This document shows, one piece after another, positions 6,701 through 56,657 of a DNA stretch of 64,000 nt. This stretch comes from an uncultured Bacilli bacterium (GTDB lineage Bacteria > Bacillota_I > Bacilli_A > RF39 > UBA660), in the NCBI GenBank assembly GCA_934153945.1, contig CAKPFM010000001.1, forward strand, positions 72,128 to 136,127. The letters are read 5' to 3'. Numbering within the stretch: position 1 is the first letter of the stretch; every line of letters begins with the position of its first letter. Made by a program: the position numbers and the translations under genes. The notes below the pieces were generated by a model. The model was not told the origin of the DNA. It did no database searches and saw only the letters and a list, made by a program, of their open reading frames with translations.

Positions 6701-7390
6701 TATGTTGCTACACCAGTATTTGATGGTGCTACTCGTGATGAAATAATTGATGCTTTAAAAGAAGCAGGATTAGAAGAAGATGGAAAAGCTGTTTTATATG
6801 ATGGTAGAACAGGTGAACCATTTGATAATAGAATTTCAGTTGGTATCATGTATATGATCAAATTAAATCACATGGTTGATGATAAATTACATGCTAGATC
6901 AACAGGACCTTACTCTTTAGTAACTCAACAACCTCTAGGTGGTAAAGCACAATTCGGTGGTCAAAGATTTGGTGAAATGGAAGTTTGGGCATTAGAAGCA
7001 TATGGCGCAGCTCATGTACTTCAAGAAATGATTACAATCAAATCGGATGATGTTGTAGGACGTGTTAAAGTTTATGAAGCTTTAGTAAAAGGAACACCAC
7101 TTCCAGCATCGGGAGTACCAGAAAGCTTTAGAGTATTAATGAAAGAATTCCAAGCTTTAGGACTTGATATGACAGTTCTAGATAGTGAAGGAAACTTTGT
7201 TGATATGAAAGATTTAGAAGCAGCAGAAAATGATGGTTTCTTAACTTTAGAACCAGAAGAATTAGAAAGTGTTGCTAATAATGATATTGAAGAAGAAGAA
7301 ACAGAAGAAGAATATGATGATGAACCAGATTTTGGTGATGATTTTGATCAAGATATGGATGATTTTGATTTAGAAGGGGATGGGGAATAA
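3797..7390 (+). CDS. rpoB: DNA-directed RNA polymerase beta subunit, with a ~45-aa acidic C-terminal tail
   Basis: 1197 aa with canonical RpoB motifs (for example [15 protein letters not shown] and [52 protein letters not shown]). GTG start after an RBS. Confidence 0.97.
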
Positions 7391-10300
7391 TGAATATTAA
7401 TAACGTTGAAGGGTTAAGAATAGCAATTGCCTCTCCTGAAATAATCAGAGAATGGTCTAATGGAGAAGTAAAAAAAGCAGAAACAATAAACTATCGTACT
7501 TTAAAACCTGAAAGAGATGGTTTGTTCTGTGAAAAAATATTTGGACCAACAAAAGACTGGGAATGTTCTTGTGGTAAATATAAAAGATTAAGATATAAAA
7601 ATATCGTTTGTGATAGATGTGGAGTAGAAGTTACATCTTCAAAAGTTCGTCGTGAACGTATGGGACACATAGAGCTTGCTACTCCTGTATCTCACATTTG
7701 GTTTTTTAAAGGTATACCATCTCGTATGGGATTAGTACTTGATATGTCACCAAGAGATTTGGAAGAAGTATTATACTTTGTTTCATATGTAGTATTAGAT
7801 CCAGGAGCAGCTCCTTTAGAGAAAAAACAAATAATCAGTGATAAAGAATACCGTGCTTACTATGAAAAATACGGAAGTAGTTTCAGAGTTGGTATGGGTG
7901 CTGAAGCAATTAAAGAATTATTACAACAAGTTGATATTGAACAAGAAGTAGAAAATATCAAAAAGGAAATAGAAGAAATAAAAGATAGTGCAAGTCAAAA
8001 AAGAGTTCGTTTAATCAAGAGATTAGATGTACTAAATGCTTTCCTTGAATCAGGAAATAAACCTGAATGGATGATAATGGATGCTATTCCAGTAATTCCA
8101 CCAGAATTAAGACCAATGATTCAATTAGATGGTGGTAGATTTGCTACATCTGATTTAAATGATTTATATAGAAGAGTAATCAATCGTAACAATCGTTTAA
8201 AAAAATTAATGGAATTAGGCGCTCCTAGTATCATTATTCAAAATGAAAAACGTATGTTACAAGAAGCAGTAGATGCATTATTTGATAATGGTAGAAGAGG
8301 ACGTAACATTACTGGAGCAGGTAATAGACCACTTAAATCTTTATCAAGTATGTTAAAAGGTAAACAAGGTCGTTTCCGTCAAAACTTACTAGGTAAACGT
8401 GTTGACTATTCAGGTCGTTCAGTTATCGTAGTTGGACCATCACTTAAAATGTATGAATGTGGTATTCCAAAGGAAATGGCTTTAGAATTATTTAAACCTT
8501 ATGTAATAAATGGCTTAGTATCTAAAGATATAGCATCAAATATTAAAGCTGCTAAACGTATGATTGAAAATCAAGATCCAAGAGTTTGGGATATTGTAGA
8601 AGAAAAAATTAAAGAACATCCAGTTATGTTAAACCGTGCTCCAACACTTCATAGACTTGGTATTCAAGCATTTGAACCAAAATTAATTGATGGTAGAGCA
8701 ATTCGTCTACATCCGCTTGTTTGTGCAGCATTCAATGCCGACTTTGATGGGGACCAAATGGCTGTTCACGTTCCAATTAGTGAAGAAGCTCAAGCTGAAG
8801 CTAGAATTTTAATGTTAGGTGCTAATAACATCCTAAAACCTTCTGATGGTAACCCAATTGTTACTCCAGGACAAGATATGATTTTAGGTAACTATTACAT
8901 AACTATTGAAAAAGCTGATATGCCTGGTGAAGGCAGAGTATTTAAAAATCCAGATGAAGCATTAATGGCATTTGAAAGAAGAGAAATTTCTCAACATACA
9001 AGAATTGCTATTCCAGTAAGTGGATTTAAACATAAATTATTTACTGAAGAACAAATGGATAAATATTTAGTAACTACAGTAGGAAAATTAAAATTCAATG
9101 AAATTTTCCCAGATACTTTCCAATATATTAACGAAGGTACAAAAGAAAATATAGAAGGTATAACACCAGCAAAATATTTCTTAAGTAGAGGTACTAATAT
9201 AAAAGAAGCAATTAAAGAGATGGAATTAGTAAAACCTTTTGGTAAAAAAGTTTTAACTAAATTAATTGCTCAAATATACAAAAGATATCAAACAACTGAA
9301 ACATCAATTATGCTTGATAAAATGAAAGATTTAGGATTTAAAGAATCTACATTATCAGGTATATCAATTGGTATTGGTGATATTATTCCATCAAAAACTA
9401 AAAAACAAGTTTTAGAAAATGCTAACGATAGAGTAGCACAAATAAATAAACAATTTAAACGTGGTTTAATTACTGATAAAGAAAGATATGAAAAAGTAGT
9501 TGCTACATGGAATAGTGCTAAAAATGAAATAGCAGATGAATTATCACAAATTATTGCTGATAATAAAGATAATCCTATATCAATAATGATTGATTCAGGT
9601 GCCCGTGGTAATATGAGTAACTACAACCAAATGGCTGGTATGCGTGGACTTATGGCTAAACCAAATGGTGAATCAGTAGAAATTCCAATCACTTCTTCAT
9701 TTATTGAAGGTGCAAGAGTTTCCGAGTTCTTCTTAGCAACTCACGGTATCAGAAAAGGTTTCGTTGATACAGCTCTTAAAACAGCAGATGCTGGTTACTT
9801 AACAAGAAGACTTATCGATGTATCACATGATATAATTATCAAAGAAGATGATTGTGGTACTGATGATGGTGTAGTAGTAGAAGCATTCTTAAATACAGAT
9901 GGTACTGTTATTGAAGGATTAAGAGATCGTATTGTTGGTAGATATACTAATAAGAAAGTTATTAATCCAGAAACAAAAGAAGTAATTGCTGATAGAAATA
10001 CTTACATTACTGAAAATTTAGCAGATAAAATTATTGATGCTGGAATTACAAAAGTTTCAATTCGTACAGTATTAACTTGTAAATCAAAAGGTTCAGTATG
10101 TAGACATTGTTATGGACGTAACTTAGCTACTGGACAAATTGTTGAAATAGGAGAAGCAGTTGGTACTATGGCAGCACAATCAATTGGTGAACCAGGAACA
10201 CAATTAACAATGCGTACTATCAACTCAGGTGGTGTAGCCGGAGACGATATTACTCAAGGTCTTCCTCGTGTTCAAGAATTATTTGAAGCACGTAATCCAA

Positions 10301-46989: not shown

Positions 46990-47017
46990 TTGACATTATC
47001 ATAAAATATAGTATAAT
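46990..47017 (+). promoter_or_regulatory. consensus sigma-A promoter driving tRNA-Gly
   Basis: TTGACA-N16-TATAAT ending about 20 nt upstream of the tRNA 5' end. Confidence 0.55.
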
Positions 47018-47036: not shown

Positions 47037-47110
47037 GCAGATGTAGTTTAATGGTAGAACCTCAGCCTTCCAAGCTGACTGCGTGAGTTCGATTCTCATC
47101 ATCTGCTCCA
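47037..47110 (+). tRNA. tRNA-Gly, anticodon TCC
   Basis: Manual fold: acceptor GCAGATG/CATCTGC, D arm GTTT..GAAC, anticodon arm TCAGC-CTTCCAA-GCTGA, T arm GTGAG-TTCGATT-CTCAT, then discriminator T and CCA. Confidence 0.85.
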
Positions 47111-47119
47111 TATGAAATT

Positions 47120-47147
47120 AACAGACATTATAGTGTCTGTTTTTTTG
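47120..47147 (+). terminator. terminator after tRNA-Gly
   Basis: ACAGACAT..GTGTCTGT followed by a 7-T run. Confidence 0.65.
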
Positions 47148-47221
47148 TATTTATTCTACGCAGTCAGCTTGGAAAATACCAAATAAAAAATATTAAAATA
47201 TTTGATATTTTTACCATTAAA

Positions 47222-47533
47222 CTACATCTTTTTATTAATTACTTTATTGTTCATATATTCAATTATATCGTCAAAAATGCTATACCATTTTATTTGAACA
47301 CAAAATCTTTTTTTATCATATTTAGGATTATAATTTAGATTTCTAGTCATAGGTTGACAATATAAATTAGCAAAATGAACTCCAGTTGAATAAATATTTC
47401 TTTTTGAAAATATTATCTTGTCAATTTCATATCTTGTAATAAACAAAAAGTCATCTACAGTACCATAGATGATAGCATCTATACATTCATTAGAATTTTT
47501 TTCATATAGCGCATATATAAAATCTTTAAACAA
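47222..47533 (-). pseudogene. internally deleted copy (103 aa) of the 253-aa gene at 48593..49354
   Basis: N-terminus MFKDFIYALYEKNSNECIDAIIYG fuses residues ~28-40 (..LFKDFIYALYGKN..) to residues ~178-190 (..QGKNSNECIDAIIYG..) of the full paralog. The rest is ~90% identical. It has a start and a stop, so it might still be expressed. Confidence 0.55.
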
Positions 47534-47670
47534 GGGTTTAATGATCTAATTTTACAGACATTAAATAACAGGAAAATTTATAAAACTTGTTATAAAACTG
47601 ATACATGAGTAAATATGCTTTATTGCTAAAAATGGTTAAATTATGATAAAATATATTTAGGTGGTTACTT

Positions 47671-48309
47671 ATGAGAAAGATATTTTTGTATTTATATCCT
47701 GTTCATGAATATAATCATTCTTTTGAATTTTCAGAAGAATATTTACAACAAATGGAAAGAGAAAATCCATATAAAGTATTAAATCAATGTATACAAAAAA
47801 GGTATAGAGAAAAAGGATATCAAATTGTTTATGCAATGTATCCAGATAAAAATATTTACGGAATTAATCCTTTACCTACTGATAAAATAATTTATACTGA
47901 TGTAACTTTTGAACAAGCTAGTGGTTATAATCAAAATGGTAGTGAAAAGCGAGATAAAGATATTAAATATCCTAGTGAAAAATATTTAATAGAACAATTA
48001 GGAGACTTTGATGAAATAGTAATTGGTGGATTTCACTTTGGAGATTGTGTTAAAAAAGTTGCTGAATATTGTTATCAAAGTGGATTTTCTACTCTTGTAG
48101 ATTTAGATTTAACTGATTTATTTTTTAATATTTATCATAAAAAGGATTACTTTAAAATAGATGAGTATAATCCACAAAACTATAAAAATTATGTATTATT
48201 AAATAGTCGATTTAAAAATAAGGAAATGGCTGAAAGATTATTTGAAAGAAATTATAATAGCCCTGTTTATGGATTTGAAAATGTTGAAGAAAAAAGAAAA
48301 CTTAAATAA
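47671..48309 (+). CDS. hypothetical protein, 212 aa
   Basis: ORF with RBS AGGTGG. A weak resemblance of DEIVIGGFHFGDCVKKVAEY to isochorismatase-like folds is not enough to call. Confidence 0.45.
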   Translation: MRKIFLYLYPVHEYNHSFEFSEEYLQQMERENPYKVLNQCIQKRYREKGYQIVYAMYPDKNIYGINPLPTDKIIYTDVTFEQASGYNQNGSEKRDKDIKYPSEKYLIEQLGDFDEIVIGGFHFGDCVKKVAEYCYQSGFSTLVDLDLTDLFFNIYHKKDYFKIDEYNPQNYKNYVLLNSRFKNKEMAERLFERNYNSPVYGFENVEEKRKLK

Positions 48310-48460
48310 TAAAAATATATAAGGTATACTAAAATTATATTAGTTGTTTTTAAGAAGAAGTTTTATGGACAAAATTGTGGAGAAAATTAGTTAACAAACT
48401 AAAATATTGTTGGTTTAATAAAAAATAGATGATAGAAGATATATTTTGATAAAAGGTTTA

Positions 48461-48552
48461 AAGCTTTCCTATCAAATGGTCCATATAAAATTAACAGACT
48501 TTATATAGTCTGTTTTTTGTATTTATTCTACGCAGTCAGCTTGGAAAGTATA
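48461..48552 (+). repeat. direct repeat of the tRNA-Gly 3' end and its downstream terminator region (att-like junction)
   Basis: TCCTATCAAATGGTCCATAT matches the tRNA 3' end TCTCATCATCTGCTCCATAT at 15 of 20 positions. It is followed by a near-identical copy of 47111..47175 and then a copy of the 47190..47350 region. Confidence 0.55.
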
Positions 48553-48592
48553 AAATATCAATACAGAAATATTAAATATTTTTACCATTAAA

Positions 48593-49354
48593 CTACATCT
48601 TTTTATTAATTACTTTATTGTTCATATATTCAATTATATCGTCAAAAATGCTATACCATTTTATTTGAACACAAAATCTTTTTTTATCATATTTAGGATT
48701 ATAATTTAGATTTCTAGTCATAGGTTGACAATATAAATTAGCAAAATGTATTCCTGTTGAATAAATATCTTTTTTAGAAATTATTATCTCTTCAATTTCT
48801 TCTTTAGTAATAAACAAAAAGTCATCTACAGTACCATATATAATAGCGTCTATACATTCATTTGAATTTTTACCTTGTAAAATAAATCTATTGATTGCTC
48901 TTTTTATGATATATTCATTATTTAAAGCAATATTTATTTTATCAATTTTATCTTGATTATTAATTTTATATTCATATCCTGATATTCTATTTGCGCCAGT
49001 TCCATTAGTTGTACCATCAGCATAGTGATATTTTAAATATTCAATTATATTTTCTTTTGAAATACCAGAATCTATTAAAAAATGAATAAAACTAGATATT
49101 CCTTCAACATGAACTGAATTATTTATACCTTTTTTAATACTTATTTTTTTGATACAATCATTTATATTTATAATTAAATCATATTTTTTCTTATCATAAT
49201 CAACTTTACATTTTATTCTAGAATTTTCATTTAAATTTTTTCCATATAGAGCATATATAAAATCTTTAAATAAAGGGGTTAATGATTTAATTTTACAACC
49301 ATTTAAATAACAAGAAAATTTATGTTCATTTTCAAAACCTGTTACTTCATTCAT
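48593..49354 (-). CDS. hypothetical protein, 253 aa, full-length member of the duplicated family
   Basis: Long ORF. Its C-terminal 90 aa are nearly identical to 47222..47533. No confident family; no Cys/His nuclease motifs. Confidence 0.55.
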   Translation of the reverse strand: MNEVTGFENEHKFSCYLNGCKIKSLTPLFKDFIYALYGKNLNENSRIKCKVDYDKKKYDLIININDCIKKISIKKGINNSVHVEGISSFIHFLIDSGISKENIIEYLKYHYADGTTNGTGANRISGYEYKINNQDKIDKINIALNNEYIIKRAINRFILQGKNSNECIDAIIYGTVDDFLFITKEEIEEIIISKKDIYSTGIHFANLYCQPMTRNLNYNPKYDKKRFCVQIKWYSIFDDIIEYMNNKVINKKM

Positions 49355-49410
49355 TTAATATCATCTCCTCGAAATGTTTAAAAAATATTATAATATTATA
49401 AAAAAATAAA

Positions 49411-49479
49411 ATCAATCAAATTCAAAATACAAAAATCGACAACTATATATTGTCGAACTATGTAAAATATAATATTATT
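49411..49479. repeat. ~70-bp intergenic repeat, copy 1, with palindromic core CGACAA-ctatatat-TTGTCG
   Basis: Near-identical to 56590..56657 (..tcaacaactacatatattgtctaactatgtaaaatataatatta..). Confidence 0.5.
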
Positions 49480-49655
49480 GAATTCTATAAAATACTAAAT
49501 GATATGAATATAAGTACTTCCAATTATTAAAAATCAAAATAAGAATATCATATTAAAAATTATGTTTATAATAGAGTGGTATGGAACACGTTATAACATA
49601 GCAAATAAAAGAATAGAAAAAAATCATTAGTATTTGAATTAATTATTTTATATTT

Positions 49656-50669
49656 TTATTTTGATACATCCAAAAATCCTAATCCTAAATGTAACTTATC
49701 TCCATTTAATAATCTTTTTTTCAACTCACTTTGTAAAGTTGTTTTTTCAGGTAAATCGTTATAATTAACTTCTCCAAGAACTTTATCAAAAACAAAATTT
49801 AAGAAATCATTTACATTTTCTTCATATTCTATAATATTAAATTTATTTTGAAATTTTAGTATATTACTATTTGTTGATAATATTTCTTTAACCTCAGGAC
49901 TTAGTAACCAAGTTTTTGTATAATATGCTAGTTTTTCATTTTTTAATTCTGGATAATATTTTTTTATATATTTATCAGCTAAACTAAATGATTCATTAAC
50001 ATCTTTTTCATTTAAATGAGTATCTCTAGGTATATGAATATAAATATATTGGTGTTTTTCTTCAAAGTATTTATCTAGTTTATTAAAATTTTTAACTCCA
50101 ACTTCATATTGCAACCTTCCAATTTGGATTAAATATCCCTTCATAAAGTAAGATCCCCAAATCATTTGACTGAATCTTATTCCATTAATACCATATTTAA
50201 TATTATCGTTCGTACAAGTTAGTTTAATATTATACTTTTGTAATTTTATTTGTTCTAAATCAAAATTTCTAGTTTTCATATTTTCAATATGAAATTTATG
50301 ACCACATAATAAAGCTACAACTGGAATCATATAACTACCATTATTTTTAAATACATTATTTGTCGATTTCCAAGACCATATATTATAATAATTTTTCATA
50401 TCTGCTACAAATAAAATATAATACATTATAAAACAAATTACATTTAACTTATTATCTTGTTTTAATATTCTTAACTCTTTATAGAATCTTTCTTTAAAAT
50501 CATTATTAAATTCATAATAAGATAATATTAAATTGAAATCATAATTATCTAACCATCTACAATTATATTGTTTTTTAATATATTCATAACAATTAATCCA
50601 TGAATAGGGAATATCTTCTAATGATATATATTTTGCTAATTCATCTATAGAATACATAACTACCTCCAA
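49656..50669 (-). CDS. hypothetical protein, 337 aa
   Basis: Long ORF with no recognisable family. Confidence 0.5.
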   Translation of the reverse strand: MEVVMYSIDELAKYISLEDIPYSWINCYEYIKKQYNCRWLDNYDFNLILSYYEFNNDFKERFYKELRILKQDNKLNVICFIMYYILFVADMKNYYNIWSWKSTNNVFKNNGSYMIPVVALLCGHKFHIENMKTRNFDLEQIKLQKYNIKLTCTNDNIKYGINGIRFSQMIWGSYFMKGYLIQIGRLQYEVGVKNFNKLDKYFEEKHQYIYIHIPRDTHLNEKDVNESFSLADKYIKKYYPELKNEKLAYYTKTWLLSPEVKEILSTNSNILKFQNKFNIIEYEENVNDFLNFVFDKVLGEVNYNDLPEKTTLQSELKKRLLNGDKLHLGLGFLDVSK

Positions 50670-50884
50670 TTATTTCATATAATAAAATTATACAATATTT
50701 CGGAAAGTTTTTCTATACGATTATTGATTTTCCTTAGAGTTTATCTTATAATCTATTTAACTAATGAGGGATATTTTTTTGATAAATTGTTTAAAAACTT
50801 TTTATAGAATATTTAAATTTTGTATTAAAATATAAAAAAGATAGTCTATTTATGATATAATATCTATTATGAGGAGAATTAAAT

Positions 50885-51505
50885 ATGGAAAGTGCTAAAT
50901 TAAGTAAAAACGAATTAATCGATTTGATTTTTTATAGTTTAAATGAAAATAATGTTGATATAAAAGATATTAATCGTTTAGAAATTGAATCTATCTTTGC
51001 AAACTATATTAGGCTTTGTAATGAATTTCAAACTTCTTGTGTTCGAGGAGAATTAGATACATTTAAAAGAGCAGCATGTTTGTTAGTTGCTATTAATAGG
51101 GGAAGACTATCTAAGAATAAAAGACTTAATGCTTCTATTGCATTAGACACAGCTTATAAAATGTGTGAAAAACCTTATTGGAATATTGGTGAAAATTTTG
51201 ATATTCCAAAAAAATTGGAAGAAGTTGAATTTAAAAAAGCCTTTGAAAATGATATGTATGTGTATAATAAATCTAAAGAGATGTTAATTGATTCATTAGT
51301 TTATGAAAACGGTTCACCAATAAATTATAATCTTAATTTAGAATTATTATATCAAGTGGCATTAGAATTAAAACATAATCCAGTTCAATCAATGAGTAGT
51401 GAAAGCCAAGAAAAAAGCATAGAAGAAGAATTATTTGATTCAGAAGTAAGAAAAGACATAGGTCGAAAAAGAAAATTTTTAAATTTCTTTAAGAAACCAT
51501 TTTAA
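50885..51505 (+). CDS. hypothetical protein, 206 aa
   Basis: ORF after RBS GAGGAG. Terminator at 51518..51552 (AAACTACTGA..TCAGTAGTTT plus T-run). Confidence 0.5.
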   Translation: MESAKLSKNELIDLIFYSLNENNVDIKDINRLEIESIFANYIRLCNEFQTSCVRGELDTFKRAACLLVAINRGRLSKNKRLNASIALDTAYKMCEKPYWNIGENFDIPKKLEEVEFKKAFENDMYVYNKSKEMLIDSLVYENGSPINYNLNLELLYQVALELKHNPVQSMSSESQEKSIEEELFDSEVRKDIGRKRKFLNFFKKPF

Positions 51506-51674
51506 TTTTTATATTATAAAACTACTGAAAGTTAATAAATCAGTAGTTTTTTATTCAAAAATTATTATGTTAATTTAAAAATACTATTTTAAAATTTTAA
51601 TGATAAGGTTATATCTAATTTATCAATATAAAGCTTTTTTTGTTTTATATTTGTACCAATAGCGATATTGGTAT

Positions 51675-52562
51675 TTACTTTGTTATTATTTCAATAAGTT
51701 TTTTTGTACTAAAATTAGGTACGTGATTCTTTGGTAATGCGATTCCTATATATCGACTAGGAATTTTTTCTTTTATAGTTAATTCAAATAATTCTTTGTT
51801 TTTTATTGCATCTTTAATATACTCTTTAGTTACATACCCAATACCAAGACCAATTTTGGAAAATTCAACAACTAATGAATAACTTGCTACTTCAATATTA
51901 GGTTTAAGAATAACACCATTTTTTCTTGCTATATTATCTAAAAATTCCCTAGTATTTGAACCTTTTCTTTGCAAAATTAAAGGATAATTATTTAAATCTT
52001 TTAAAAATATTTCTTTACCAATCAAATCTTGATATTTATTATTTACTACAAAACAATCATTTATCTTTCTACATTTAATAATATCAATATCATTATCATA
52101 ATTTTTATCATTTAAATTTAATACCATAATATCTATTAATCCATTTTTTAATTTTGACATTAAATCTGAAGGTAAACTAGTTATTATTTGTATATCTATT
52201 TTAGAATATAAAGAATGAAATTCTTCTAAATATGGAAGTAAAAATTCTTTTGTTAATGTCGTACTAATACCAATTTTTATACATCCCGTTTCTAGATTAA
52301 TAAGGTCTGTAAACTTATTTTCAGCATTATTAATGTATTCAATTGCTTGCTTTATATAATTATAAAATTCTTTTCCTTCTTCAGTAAGAATAACACCTCG
52401 TTTAGTTCTAACAAATAATTGACCTCCTAGTTGTTCTTCTAGATTTTTAATTGATTTACTAATTGCAGGTTGAGAGATATTTAACTCTTCACTTGCTTTA
52501 GTAATATTACAGTGATTGGCAACTACATAAAAAATTCTATATAATTCAAAATCAATATTCAT
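51675..52562 (-). CDS. LysR-family transcriptional regulator
   Basis: N-terminal HTH FYVVANHCNITKASEELNISQPAISKSIKNLEEQLGGQLFVRTKRGVILTEEG plus the LysR substrate-binding domain. Confidence 0.9.
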   Translation of the reverse strand: MNIDFELYRIFYVVANHCNITKASEELNISQPAISKSIKNLEEQLGGQLFVRTKRGVILTEEGKEFYNYIKQAIEYINNAENKFTDLINLETGCIKIGISTTLTKEFLLPYLEEFHSLYSKIDIQIITSLPSDLMSKLKNGLIDIMVLNLNDKNYDNDIDIIKCRKINDCFVVNNKYQDLIGKEIFLKDLNNYPLILQRKGSNTREFLDNIARKNGVILKPNIEVASYSLVVEFSKIGLGIGYVTKEYIKDAIKNKELFELTIKEKIPSRYIGIALPKNHVPNFSTKKLIEIITK

Positions 52563-52651
52563 AATAACCTCCTGTTATGGTAAACATAATAAATATGTAT
52601 TTTAATTATATCAAAAATTGTAATATAATACAAGCAGATGGGAGGAAAAGT

Positions 52652-53209
52652 ATGATTATAGGGATTTGTGGTAAGTCAGGTAGTGGTAAAAGTACATTGG
52701 CAAATCAAATAATAGAATTAAAGAATAATAAAGCTATTCATTTGGATATTGATAAAGTTGGTCATAGTGTATTACTACTACCAGAAGTTAAAAAAGAATT
52801 AATAAATTCATTTGGAGAGTCTATTGTTGAAGAAAATATTATTGATAGAAAAAAACTTGGTAAAATAGTTTTTGATTCGAGAAGCGAGATGAATAAACTA
52901 TCTGATATTACATGGAAATATATGCAAATAGAAATTGATAAGTTTTTAAAACTTAATAAAGATAAAATTATTATTTTAGATTGGATATTATTATCAATTT
53001 CAAAATATTTTGATATGTGTGATATAAAAATATTGTTAGACATTCCATATGAAGTGAGAAAACAAAGAGCAATGAAAAGAGATGGCATAACAGAAAAAGA
53101 ATTTGATTTAAGAGAAAAGGCAAGTATTAATTTTGATGAAAAAGCTTTTGATTATATATTAAAAGAAAATGATAAAGAAGTAGTTAAAAGGATGGTGAAA
53201 TTATTATGA
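52652..53209 (+). CDS. coaE: dephospho-CoA kinase
   Basis: P-loop IGICGKSGSGKST. ..FGESIVEENIIDRKKLGKIVFDSRSEMNKLSDITW.. follows the CoaE pattern. Lies directly upstream of and overlaps coaD. Confidence 0.7.
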   Translation: MIIGICGKSGSGKSTLANQIIELKNNKAIHLDIDKVGHSVLLLPEVKKELINSFGESIVEENIIDRKKLGKIVFDSRSEMNKLSDITWKYMQIEIDKFLKLNKDKIIILDWILLSISKYFDMCDIKILLDIPYEVRKQRAMKRDGITEKEFDLREKASINFDEKAFDYILKENDKEVVKRMVKLL

Positions 53210-53700
53210 CAAAAGTTTTATACCCAGGAAGTTTTGATCCAATCACAAAAGGACATATGAATATTGTTGAACAAGCAAGCAATCTATTTGATGAAGTGAT
53301 AATAGCAGTTATGCAAAATCCTTCAAAAAAATCTGGATTATTTACTTTAGAAGAAAGAATGGAAATAATTAAAGAATTATATAAAAAAATAAATAATGTA
53401 AAAGTTATTTCTGCTAGTGGAGCCACTGTTGATGTTGCTTTACTTAATGATTGTAAAGCAATTGTTAGAGGTCTTAGAAGTTTAAGTGATTATGATTATG
53501 AAGTTCAATTACAACAAATTAATAAAGAAATATCAAACAATAAAATAAATACAATTTGTTTGTTTGCAGATAAAGAATATCAATTTGTGTCATCAAGTAT
53601 GGTTAAAGAAGTTCTTAATCTTGATAAAGATATTTCAAGATATGTAGATCCGATTGTTAAAGAAAAAATATTAGCAAAGAAAAGAAGTTTAGTAGGATGA
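53206..53700 (+). CDS. coaD: phosphopantetheine adenylyltransferase
   Basis: Translation MTKVLYPGSFDPITKGHMNIVEQAS.. is the canonical PPAT (T/H)xGH motif region. Confidence 0.92.
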   Translation: MTKVLYPGSFDPITKGHMNIVEQASNLFDEVIIAVMQNPSKKSGLFTLEERMEIIKELYKKINNVKVISASGATVDVALLNDCKAIVRGLRSLSDYDYEVQLQQINKEISNNKINTICLFADKEYQFVSSSMVKEVLNLDKDISRYVDPIVKEKILAKKRSLVG

Positions 53701-54458
53701 GTAAAGTAATAATTACACCACTTGGCACAGTATCACCTTATACAAAAGAAAACATGAATTGCCCTGGATTTTTAGTTGAATATAATAATAAAAAAATATT
53801 ACTAGATTGTGGTAATGGTATAACAAGATTATTACATTTTCCAGAAAATTTAAAAGATTTAAGTATAATTATTACTCATTACCATAAAGATCATTTTGGT
53901 GATTTAGGTGCTTTACAATATGCATCTTATGTTTATCACAATTTAGGTTTACTTGACAAAAGAATTGAAATATATTTACCTAAAAATGATATTGCATTTA
54001 ATAAATCATCAATCATTTCTAATAATGAAAGTTATTCAAATTATTATGATATTGATAATTTATATTCATTTTTTATAGATGATCTAAATATAACTTTTGA
54101 AAATAATAACTCACATTCTATTGAATCATATATGGTTAAATTGCAAAACAGTGATTTTAAAATAATTTATACTTCTGATATAGGTACAACAAATTTAATT
54201 GGATTAATAAATTTCTGTAAAAATGCAGATTTAATAATTTGTGAGAGTTCTTTTTTACAAAAACATAATGCTAATAGCAAAACTCATATGACTGCTTATG
54301 ATGCTGGTATTTTAGCAAGTAAATCTAATGCCAAAAAATTATTATTAACTCATTTTTGGCCTGAAGAAGATAAAAAATTATATTTAGAAGAGGCAAAACA
54401 AAATTTTAATCATGTTGAAGTGGCAGAAGAGGGTAAGAAAATAATATTAAAAAGGTGA
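53697..54458 (+). CDS. MBL-fold metallo-hydrolase
   Basis: HxHxDH motif in IITHYHKDHFGDLGALQYA. Confidence 0.75.
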   Translation: MSKVIITPLGTVSPYTKENMNCPGFLVEYNNKKILLDCGNGITRLLHFPENLKDLSIIITHYHKDHFGDLGALQYASYVYHNLGLLDKRIEIYLPKNDIAFNKSSIISNNESYSNYYDIDNLYSFFIDDLNITFENNNSHSIESYMVKLQNSDFKIIYTSDIGTTNLIGLINFCKNADLIICESSFLQKHNANSKTHMTAYDAGILASKSNAKKLLLTHFWPEEDKKLYLEEAKQNFNHVEVAEEGKKIILKR

Positions 54459-54509
54459 TATTTTATTGAAAAATGTAAGCAAATTTTATTAAAAAGGAAT
54501 GATAGAATA

Positions 54510-55427
54510 ATGATAGATAAATTAAATAAAATGTATTTCAATGGCATAATAAGTTCATATGAAAATAACAAAAAAATAATTGATATGCACACTCATACCA
54601 ATTATTCAGATGGTGATTTATCACCACAAGAATTAATAAGATTAGCAATAGATAAAGGAATTGGAACAATTGCTATAACAGATCATGATACTATAGAAGG
54701 AATTAAAAATGTTAATAGAAGTGAGAAAATAATTCTAGATAGTGGAATAGAAATAATTAATGGAATAGAATTATCTGCAAAAGTAAATAGAGGAAGAATG
54801 CATATTCTAGGTTACGGAATTGACTTAAATAATAAAACTTTAAATAAAAAGATGGTAGATTTGAAAGATAATAGTATTAATTCAGTTTTATCTATAATGG
54901 AACAAATAAAAAGAGATTATGGAATTAGATTTAGCTATGAAGATATAAAAGAGTTAGTGAATTCTAATCATAATTTAGGTCGCCCAGATCTAGCAAAACT
55001 TTGTGTTAAATATGGATATGCAACTACATTATCTGATGCATTTGATAAGTATTTAATAGATGCACATAATAAAACACGACAATCAAACAAAGGATTACAA
55101 TACCAAGAATGTTTAGAATTAATTGCAAATAGTGGGGGAATTCCAGTTTTGGCGCATCCAAAATCGTTAGAATTATCAGAAAAAGAATTTTTAATATTAT
55201 TAAAAGAAATGGTTAGTTGTGGTTTAAAAGGTATTGAAGTATATCATTCAAGCCATTCAAAAGAAGAAATGAATTATTATTTAGAAATAGCAAATAAATA
55301 TGATTTGTTAATAAGTGGGGGTAGTGATTTCCATGGAAAAACTGTTAAACCAGATATTGAATTAGGAACTGGTAAAAATAACAATATTAGAATAAAAAAA
55401 TTATCATTACTTGATAGATTACATTAA
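54510..55427 (+). CDS. PHP-domain phosphoesterase (TrpH/YciV-like)
   Basis: IDMHTHTNYSDGDLSPQELIRLAIDKGIGTIAITDHDT, plus later His/Asp ligands. Confidence 0.8.
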   Translation: MIDKLNKMYFNGIISSYENNKKIIDMHTHTNYSDGDLSPQELIRLAIDKGIGTIAITDHDTIEGIKNVNRSEKIILDSGIEIINGIELSAKVNRGRMHILGYGIDLNNKTLNKKMVDLKDNSINSVLSIMEQIKRDYGIRFSYEDIKELVNSNHNLGRPDLAKLCVKYGYATTLSDAFDKYLIDAHNKTRQSNKGLQYQECLELIANSGGIPVLAHPKSLELSEKEFLILLKEMVSCGLKGIEVYHSSHSKEEMNYYLEIANKYDLLISGGSDFHGKTVKPDIELGTGKNNNIRIKKLSLLDRLH

Positions 55428-55689
55428 ATAATATTATTGTTATAACAATTATTTATCAAATTTTACTATTATGAGTTTCAAATATCTTTACTAAGAATAA
55501 ATTGATAAATTTTAGAAATATCAAAAAATGAAATTAGTATTTACATAAATAATCATCAAAAAAAGAGGAAAAATTATCAAAACGATTTAATCCTCTTTTT
55601 ATATTTTAAAATTTTTGAAATAAAAGTGTATTTAGTGATTATTAAATTTATATTTATGAATAAACAAATATTATATAATTATTATATTT

Positions 55690-56301
55690 TTATAAATTTT
55701 CTTTTATTTCTGGAAATAAGTCATACAAATTATATCCTAATAAATTATCAAAATAATTTTTTAATTTCATCGTTTCTATTAAATGATAATGGGTATTTTT
55801 ATATACACCATGTCTCAATAATAAATCCATTAACCTTTTTTCTATTGTCTGTAATTCAGTAGTACACATTAAATCACATAAATTAATAATTTTTTCATAG
55901 ATTGTATATTCTTGTAACAAATATTCTTTTATAAATGAATAATTTTTATTAGTTGAATCTGTATAATCTCTATCATTTGCTAAACAATTAATATCATTAT
56001 TCAAAAAAGAATGTTTAATACATATACCAGCATATTTATCATCGTATCCTAATGATTTTAAATAATTATATCCATTAATTGCATGGGGTATTACGCCTTC
56101 ATAACTATTTGTTCCAAATCTTTTTCCAATATCATGAACATATCCTAATGTTTTAGCATAATCTTCGTCTAAATTTAATGATTTAGCGATTACACCTGCT
56201 GTATTACCAACACAAATTGAATGTGTAATCCAATTATCATTTTTTACCATACCTTTACAATTATTTAATAAAGCTAATGCGTCTTTACAACTTAATTTCA
56301 T
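55690..56301 (-). CDS. HD-domain protein
   Basis: ITHSICVGNTAGVIAKSLNLDEDYAKTLGYVHDIGKRFG carries the H..HD..K motifs. Confidence 0.7.
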   Translation of the reverse strand: MKLSCKDALALLNNCKGMVKNDNWITHSICVGNTAGVIAKSLNLDEDYAKTLGYVHDIGKRFGTNSYEGVIPHAINGYNYLKSLGYDDKYAGICIKHSFLNNDINCLANDRDYTDSTNKNYSFIKEYLLQEYTIYEKIINLCDLMCTTELQTIEKRLMDLLLRHGVYKNTHYHLIETMKLKNYFDNLLGYNLYDLFPEIKENL

Positions 56302-56589
56302 TGATTTATTTCCTCCTTAAAAATATTATTTTAATTTTTTTTTACTTACATAAAAATTTTTGTGAGTGATATACTGCTTCACTTGAATGATTTTAAATAT
56401 ATTATATTATAAAATAGCAAAATTCTCTAGGTTTTGATTTAAATTTAATAACAATTTATATTTAGATATAAAAAATAGTTTATTAGATGATGTTTAAATA
56501 AAATTAATAGATTTTATATAGCTCATTTTTTTATTATTTTCATCAAAATGGAATATATCATAATTTAAGCTATTTTACTAATAAACTAA

Positions 56590-56657
56590 ATCAATTGAAT
56601 TTAAAAGTCAACAACTACATATATTGTCTAACTATGTAAAATATAATATTACTATCA
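56590..56657. repeat. ~70-bp intergenic repeat, copy 2 (see 49411..49479)
   Basis: aaatcaattgaatttaaaagtcaacaactacatatattgtctaactatgtaaaatataatatta, ~65 bp upstream of the gene at 56720. Confidence 0.5.

Follow-up and report, generated by a model that had tools for sequence, protein, structure and literature searches.

The 64,000-nucleotide (nt) stretch analysed here (the window) comes from an uncultured Bacilli bacterium (GCA_934153945.1, contig CAKPFM010000001.1, positions 72,128-136,127, forward strand), has a G+C content of 24.5%, and carries a tRNA-Gly(UCC) gene beside which lie an extra block of 1,373 bp, two copies of a nuclease gene, one intact and one dead, and inverted fragments of the tRNA gene itself. 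The tRNA gene (47037..47110, plus strand; CCA end encoded), a functional gene and an insertion hot spot, is recognized by ARAGORN and as Rfam RF00005 (69.8 bits), and an Rfam scan of 46.3-52.0 kb found no other RNA family. Its sequence is the same as that of tRNA-Gly in two related loci, L037 and L043, with flanks 94% and 75% identical to the window. Read off the sequence are a promoter (46990..47017, plus strand; TTGACA, 16-nt spacer, TATAAT), whose -35 and -10 elements and leader (AGTGCCTACTGAAGT) are kept in related loci, and an intrinsic terminator designated type 1 (47122..47146, plus strand; CAGACA...TGTCTG, then T7), which may be bidirectional because an A-run lies on its opposite side. 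The ancestral order of the locus, which was found in relatives through its DUF308 neighbour, is ABC transporter, ABC transporter, DUF308, tRNA-Gly(UCC), terminator, the convergent gene of a nuclease of 253 amino acids (aa) on the opposite strand, a 148-aa open reading frame (ORF), and GGDEF.

The extra block (block 1, 47111-48483) begins at the first base after the intact tRNA gene and has three parts: a dead copy of the local module, which consists of terminator, inverted tRNA fragments and nuclease gene; a cassette with the gene of a 212-aa protein; and a 43-nt tRNA-like repeat. The number of units per locus varies among relatives: the window, L001 and L060 have two, L037-39 and L034-36 have one, and L041 has none. 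A comparison of strains for copy-number variation had been proposed in an earlier reading of this stretch made from its letters alone (the sequence-only reading). In L037-39, the flanks are 94% identical to the window and the single unit is joined straight to the real tRNA gene, with a terminator of a second type (type 2) directly 3' of the tRNA in L037; the more distant L034-36 have the same backbone and again a single unit; and L041 has neither nuclease gene nor inverted fragments, with ~330 nt in their place that hold a probable C-terminal tyrosine-recombinase remnant. Because relatives with 94% identical flanks have one unit abutting the tRNA, block 1 appears to have been inserted or accreted at the 3' end of the tRNA, the site that the sequence-only reading had named.

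The two units (47093-~47610 and 48466-49354) are in direct orientation and 93% identical, confirming the tandem duplication next to tRNA-Gly that had been seen from the sequence; the repeat pairs are 47093-47145 and 48466-48518 (53 nt, 83%), 47141-47185 and 48513-48557 (93%), and 47189-47488 and 48560-48859 (300 nt, 93%). The nuclease gene of unit 1 is a pseudogene (47222..47610, minus strand) with a residual ORF of 103 aa (47222-47533). It had been called truncated, but it is a full-length copy with an internal deletion of ~370 nt that has removed the catalytic core: the deletion is bounded by two ~15-nt direct repeats (TTCATTWRAATTTTT), and beyond it the sequence again matches the start of the full gene, at 47486-~47610 (equivalent to 49226-49354). 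The terminator of unit 2 (48495..48518, plus strand) is of type 2, and its match to the single unit of L037 (37/39, and 36/36 for the adjoining spacer) marks it as the ancestral one, now moved away from the tRNA, while the type-1 terminator/spacer allele is common to unit 1 of the window and L001 (38/39 and 37/37). The duplication is real and old and not an assembly artefact, because L060 and L001 carry the same junctions: L060, an independent ENA contig, is collinear with 47237-48716 at 99.6% identity and retains unit-specific differences at both ends, and in L001, a metagenome-assembled genome (MAG), the full gene, the terminator, the tRNA-like remnant and the 212-aa gene are joined as they are in the window. 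Since the distal junction is common to L001 at ~90% identity, the arrangement predates the split of the window and L001 lineages.

The right boundary of block 1 is the 43-nt tRNA-like repeat of attachment-site (att) type (48444..48486, plus strand), which is present also in L001 and L060. Within it, 48466-48483 matches tRNA nt 57-74 in register at 13 of 18 positions, and an equal or better match to the tRNA end occurs in only 1.3e-4 of all 18-nt windows of the 64 kb; the copy of the tRNA 3' end reported earlier thus exists, though not as 15/20 at 48461-48482, coordinates that were off by one. Upstream of tRNA nt 57, the remnant has no significant tRNA similarity, and a full-length decayed tRNA at 48381-48482 was rejected on this score of its 5' two-thirds (z = -0.19); the likeness of 48381-48482 to an internally deleted tRNA-Gly was seen by eye only, versus L050. 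What had been taken for the degenerate end of a local tRNA is a distinct conserved repeat, 88-93% identical to two direct repeats in L050 (744-784 and 6450-6500) that bound an element with Mob_Pre and the 212-aa gene. At 790-900 of L050, one of the bounding repeats is followed by a terminator and an inverted fragment of the tRNA-Gly anticodon region (GCTTGGAAGGCC), with no nuclease gene nearby; it therefore seems that mobile DNA carries pseudo-tRNA, terminator and fragment along as a module.

The 212-aa cassette (47590..48317, plus strand; coding sequence 47671-48309) encodes a conserved hypothetical protein that had no match in Pfam, NCBIfam and PHROG searches and belongs to a conserved, unannotated family of 420 homologues. 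The cassette is 89-91% identical to DNA of L046-L050, where it stands in other, unrelated contexts: in L049 and L050 it lies within an element with a Mob_Pre relaxase, and L049 has in addition a serine recombinase at the corresponding end. As the sequence-only reading had said of an integrase, no recombinase was found in block 1 by domain searches, its only ORFs being the nuclease pseudogene and the 212-aa gene; recombinases are present only in related loci (L049, L051, and the remnant in L041). Its notion of serial integration at the tRNA was broadly right, for L041 has its probable tyrosine-recombinase remnant, and L002 has at 6880-9930 two nearly identical tandem elements of ~1.5 kb between the nuclease module and the real tRNA-Gly gene, each with two small ORFs, no recombinase and an end consisting of a T-arm-like remnant plus CGCTCCA. 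Remnants of the tRNA of 13 nt and 7 nt are retained in L014 and L015, respectively, and in L021 the fragment-terminator unit is present twice. Scans of viral contigs for the tRNA pattern gave no matches, and scans of metagenome contigs gave five unrelated loci, with no usable relatives among them.

The explanation that we favour, with a probability of roughly 0.6, joins insertion by recombination, copying between the arms of an inverted repeat, and an orphan nuclease. Block 1 would have entered, and might also exit, by recombination of the tRNA-like repeat with the 3' end of the tRNA, namely nt 57-74 and the adjoining start of the trailer. The catalyst would have been a recombinase provided in trans or else RecA, for which the incoming DNA offered ~0.45 kb that match the resident module; given a match of this length, RecA-mediated and site-specific insertion are equally plausible. 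The redundant nuclease copy would have decayed afterwards, through the repeat-mediated deletion of ~370 nt. Such a process would be tandem accretion as for integrative and mobilizable elements (IMEs) and cis-mobilizable elements (CIMEs), whose accretion at att sites of tRNA genes in Firmicutes has been reviewed (PMC5704250). The locus resembles these elements in the insertion at a tRNA 3' end, the imperfect tRNA-end repeat at the distal boundary, the empty sites in relatives, the serial or tandem arrays (L002 and the window), the lack of a recombinase of their own, and the existence of a related element with Mob_Pre relaxase and serine recombinase (L049/L050). Unlike them, the block holds a copy of the host's own downstream module and is only 1.4 kb long.

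The tRNA-like repeat also bears on a purely local tandem duplication by unequal crossing-over or replication slippage, in which the 212-aa cassette came later, the distal tRNA decayed and no mobile element took part. The distal 'tRNA' comprises only nt 57-74 and has mismatches at 5 of 18 positions, as against 7-13% difference in the adjacent DNA, and nothing tRNA-like stands upstream of it; moreover, the 43-nt sequence is 88-93% identical to repeats that bound the Mob_Pre element of another genome, and the junction cassette is common to that same element. We consider a local origin doubtful but not negligible, given that the units are directly oriented and 93% identical, that the block has no recombinase gene, that both copies are 90-93% identical to their L037 and L001 orthologues, so that both look native, and that tandem repeats of this size are readily gained and lost by homologous recombination.

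The intact nuclease gene of unit 2 (48593..49354, minus strand) provides the second element of the favoured explanation. Pfam, NCBIfam and PHROGs had no match to the 253-aa protein, and PDB sequence and profile searches were empty, but PADLOC assigned it to REase_II (E = 1e-9). An AlphaFold (AF2) model built on a 22-sequence alignment, with a predicted local distance difference test (pLDDT) score of 85.7 (a single-sequence model had a pLDDT of 34 and was unusable), gave significant Foldseek matches limited to HinP1I (2fkc, E = 3e-6, template modelling (TM) score 0.56) and MspI (1sa3, E = 1e-4). PADLOC, AF2 and Foldseek together thus predict a HinP1I/MspI-like PD-(D/E)XK endonuclease fold, where the sequence-only reading had found the protein unrecognizable and had suggested a nuclease or defence fold. 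HinP1I (2fkc, 1ynm) and MspI (1sa3) are monomeric type IIP restriction endonucleases, and the match is to the whole fold (~250 aa, Foldseek probability 1.0, TM 0.55-0.56); the 253-aa protein differs from them in its fixed position by a tRNA gene and in that the identity is only 14%. The active site of HinP1I and MspI is E/D/(Q,N)xK, comparable to the invariant E...D...(S)xK of the 253-aa family, in which E10, D59, S72-x-K74 and E84 do not vary among the 22 aligned sequences. Judged by its dN/dS ratio of 0.10-0.12 versus close orthologues, the gene is under purifying selection. The family comprises 751 representative clusters with no Pfam match, and its longer members (520-820 aa) likewise have no Pfam domain, so that fusion partners gave no clue to function.

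A partner methyltransferase was sought with a scan for N6/N4 and C5 motifs in ORFs of at least 120 aa. No such motif was found in the 64-kb window, and the 29 homologue loci (280 kb) gave two matches only, L011 and L025; the loci were scanned for motifs and not with profiles, and the genome may have a methyltransferase at another place. The L025 motif lies 5 kb from a distant homologue. In L011, at ~6323, an ORF of at least 340 aa contains a C5-cytosine methyltransferase motif (PCQSWS). The nuclease homologue lies ~1.9 kb upstream of this motif, which sits in DNA that displaced the tRNA and is the sole methyltransferase signal near tRNA-linked family members. Unlike a type II restriction-modification system, then, the tRNA-linked loci have no adjoining methyltransferase by motif scan, the L011 motif being ~1.9 kb off. 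The 253-aa protein would be an intact orphan restriction-like endonuclease, most likely a dispensable type II-like enzyme, predicted to be catalytically intact, that acts in defence or as a selfish nuclease. As a separate observation, GATC is under-represented in the 64-kb window (62 observed versus 135 expected, ratio 0.46), a deficit that cannot be tied to the nuclease.

The nuclease gene had been counted as cargo of the insertion, but it is a clade-wide conserved neighbour of tRNA-Gly(UCC), and this fixed pairing is one of the unusual features of the locus. In a first set of 25 homologue loci (51-87% identity, from uncultured Bacilli/Tenericutes-like MAGs), tRNA-Gly(UCC) is found in 14, and in 12 of these it is convergent and ~80-370 nt downstream of the gene; in L002 it is convergent and 3 kb off, behind the inserted elements, and in L017 it is co-oriented. 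Three further contigs of this set stop within the first tRNA bases, and in five loci the gene, fragment and terminator have been displaced by inserted DNA. The same linkage occurs in further lineages (L031-33, L034-36, L043, L052-55, L056-57), so that in the subfamily of at least 50% identity the gene adjoins tRNA-Gly(UCC) at almost every locus; these are ~30 divergent Bacilli loci, among which the flanking genes are otherwise non-syntenic. In L017, L031, L043 and L053, the nuclease gene is upstream of the tRNA in the same orientation; a single inversion between repeats was tried as the origin of this arrangement and fails to give the order in which the fragments are found. A distant homologue (L025, 26% identity) has no tRNA linkage and adjoins a serine recombinase. 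The gene is absent from L041 and degenerate in L020, L022, L043 and unit 1 of the window. Its dN/dS of ~0.1, together with the backbone synteny common to the window and L034 at 60% identity of the nuclease proteins, would indicate vertical inheritance over a long time.

The most unusual feature of the locus, missed by the sequence-only reading, is the inverted tRNA fragments. Unit 1 has exact reverse complements of tRNA nt 32-48 (47158..47174, 17/17) and of nt 3-20 (47212..47229, 18/18), the latter overlapping the stop codon of the pseudogene; unit 2 has the same two, nt 48-32 (48530..48546, 17/17) and nt 20-3 (48583..48600, 18/18), the latter overlapping the stop codon of the intact gene. All four are given on the plus strand and were located by sequence match, and in both units the fragments are placed between the stop codon and the terminator. 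Across loci, compared by ungapped extraction, an inverted copy of tRNA nt ~32-50 stands 36-54 nt past the tRNA 3' end in 17 loci. Within 450 nt of the tRNA (18.6 kb scanned), there are 31 tRNA fragments, inverted except for one match of chance size (11/12), whereas elsewhere 183 kb contain 11 matches, mostly chance-sized. The inverted pseudo-tRNA of L043 still extends to tRNA nt 72, and fragments parted from the tRNA in L002 and L011 show early decay. The tRNA-Arg(CCT) gene in the window has no inverted fragment, and a general property of the tRNA genes of this genome was rejected on that account.

The fragments follow their tRNA. In 13 of 13 loci, the locus's own tRNA is a better match than any other distinct tRNA (permutation 0/20000), and 37 cells have changed on both sides, where shuffled data gave 9.6 +/- 2.4 (0/500 as high). 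Over tRNA nt 41-45 and 48, changes are two-sided in 29 cells and in none one-sided of G-U type, and a single cell is unpaired; mismatches elsewhere show no G-U strand bias (9 versus 12) and include 17 transversions. Selection for RNA pairing was therefore not supported, the G-U strand-bias test having shown none, and because two-sided changes occur without one-sided intermediates and without G-U bias, the pattern fits wholesale copying at the DNA level. The fragments nt 32-48 and nt 3-20 would, on the favoured explanation, be remnants of an inverted copy of the tRNA gene centred on the terminator hairpin, held identical to the tRNA through gene conversion or through template switching within a quasipalindrome. 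Homogenization of inverted-repeat arms by template switching is a known process (quasipalindrome correction; PMC8604942, PMC7202029, PMC13100816). Like arms subject to quasipalindrome or palindrome conversion, those around this terminator hairpin are identical, their spacers diverge, and both arms change simultaneously; unlike in known quasipalindromes, one arm lies within an essential tRNA gene and the arrangement has lasted across a whole clade. Literature searches retrieved no description of a co-evolving inverted partial tRNA copy, nor of a fixed nuclease-tRNA pairing.

Three further observations concern the fragments and the tRNA gene. The AT-rich spacer between the inverted fragments (47175-47211 and 48547-48582) has two alleles that are only 70% alike, each 100% identical across genomes (unit 1 of the window with L001, unit 2 with L037) though the adjacent gene differs by ~10%, which implies that this small region was probably exchanged recently between units or genomes. 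In L043, the tRNA-Gly promoter is closely preceded, at 7800-7835, by three tandem units of ~10 nt (GAAGGCTNAG) that are antisense to tRNA nt 24-35. The tRNA-Gly of L041 (5737-5810) differs from that of the window at 11 positions, all within nt 23-48 (anticodon stem and variable loop), where it resembles the L034/L024 allele, the remainder being identical to the window; it looks like a patch replacement of part of the tRNA gene through recombination.

Several points weigh against the favoured explanation. No recombinase, excision product or circular form was observed; we infer the catalyst and the direction (gain versus loss), and the single units of L037 type, instead of being empty sites, could have arisen by deletion from an ancestor with two units. 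The link of the 43-nt repeat to a serine recombinase of L049 type is weak, because serine-recombinase elements normally make no long direct repeats. The terminator/spacer alleles are shuffled among genomes (unit 1 of the window with L001, unit 2 with L037), so that the history probably includes unit-to-unit exchange whose order cannot be given. As for the copying, arms of 17-22 nt that are ~100 nt apart are short for sustained conversion over a period in which the nuclease proteins have come to be 51-60% identical, and the fragments of unit 2 are still perfect at 1.4 kb from the tRNA. An extra inverted fragment just upstream of the tRNA promoter in L031, L053, L043, L009/L020 and L002 (nt 28-14, 15/15, in L031; nt 33-14, 19/20, in L053; in L017, 10 nt) is not easily explained by a single ancestral palindrome. 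Finally, the linkage of nuclease and tRNA persists despite the non-syntenic flanks, which hints at a functional tie that this explanation does not account for.

Such a tie is the substance of another explanation, in which nuclease gene, inverted fragments and tRNA-Gly form one functional module. The nuclease might be free-standing, either of homing type or tRNA-guarded, with its activity or its expression coupled to the tRNA gene, or the fragments might be selected to pair with read-through transcripts, the giant hairpin masking antisense tRNA or marking the RNA for RNase III. In the former version, the fixed position of the nuclease could be explained if it cleaves the single tRNA-Gly(UCC) gene or is regulated by it, and the fragments broken in anticodon loop and D-loop and the chimeric tRNA of L041 would be scars left as by-products; in the latter, the fragments could by base pairing neutralize transcripts that cross the boundaries of the tRNA gene. 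Linkage across ~30 loci with non-syntenic flanks and in two orientations speaks for a module, as do fragments that bracket the tRNA unit beyond the terminator and, in several lineages, beyond the promoter, and that are 100% conserved among units 1 and 2 of the window, L037 and L001 while the spacer alleles between them are only ~70% alike. For read-through RNA of either strand, a giant hairpin is predicted, with a folding energy of -74 to -75 kcal/mol (z = -9 to -13). There are also precedents: I-Ssp6803I is a PD-(D/E)XK homing endonuclease in an intron of tRNA-fMet, and SegB of phage T4 is a free-standing homing endonuclease in a tRNA cluster. As with these, a nuclease gene is linked to a conserved essential tRNA gene, with presence/absence polymorphism and occasional pseudogenes; unlike them, it involves no intron, there is no evidence for the tRNA gene as target, and the fold is that of short-site restriction enzymes, 4-bp cutters and not long-site homing enzymes. 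The pairing version is opposed by the absence of G-U strand bias and of one-sided intermediates at variable positions, and by the location of post-terminator fragments outside normally terminated transcripts. Gene and fragments are moreover dispensable (L041), the real tRNA of L002 works without an adjacent fragment, and tRNA-Arg in the window lacks such a fragment. A functional module is thus quite an unlikely explanation of the locus, and the more general proposition that nuclease, tRNA-Gly(UCC) and fragments constitute an undescribed functional module of RF39-like gut Bacilli seems to us unlikely as well.

An assembly artefact (a collapsed or mis-joined repeat), the outcome that would have spoken against the sequence-only reading, is hardly credible, for although related MAG contigs break inside the repeat (at the ends of L001 and L060), where assemblers struggle, L060 crosses the internal junctions at 99.6% identity with unit-specific single-nucleotide polymorphisms kept at both ends, L001 has the distal junction at ~90%, and the units differ by 7% plus an internal deletion, unlike assembly duplications.

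On the favoured explanation of insertion, arm copying and an orphan nuclease, the islet would join the known cases of tandem accretion at tRNA genes, this one from uncultured gut Bacilli that have small genomes and are poorly known, and a protein family with no Pfam match gains a predicted fold, its members in this clade being lone nucleases fixed by tRNA-Gly(UCC). If only copying is at work, the fragments would represent a clean natural case of long-term arm homogenization with an essential gene, and the inverted partial copy would be a possible route for patching tRNA alleles, as in the chimeric tRNA of L041. If they are functional, they would offer a new way to insulate or sense a tRNA gene and a new setting for restriction-like enzymes.

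A second insertion lies beyond the nuclease gene. The spacer between this gene and the 148-aa ORF contains a 7.1-kb segment (49478..56608) that L001, L037 and L041 lack at this place. It is flanked by a direct repeat of ~42 nt (left copy 49437..49477, right copy 56609..56651, both on the plus strand, identified by sequence comparison), present just once in L037 and in L001. The 337-aa and 206-aa ORFs, which the sequence-only reading had placed among unrecognizable cargo of the tRNA-side elements, belong to this separate segment. The 206-aa protein (50885-51505, plus strand), like the 212-aa protein, remains without a database domain (no match in Pfam, NCBIfam and PHROGs). The 337-aa protein (49656-50669, minus strand) is recognizable by a GNAT_C domain (PF18164, E = 1e-35 in Pfam). 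Other proteins of the segment are LysR, CoaE, cytidylyltransferase-like, MBL, PHP and HD; because its genes look like housekeeping rather than mobile-element genes, it may be chromosomal DNA that was translocated here and left a long duplication of its target.

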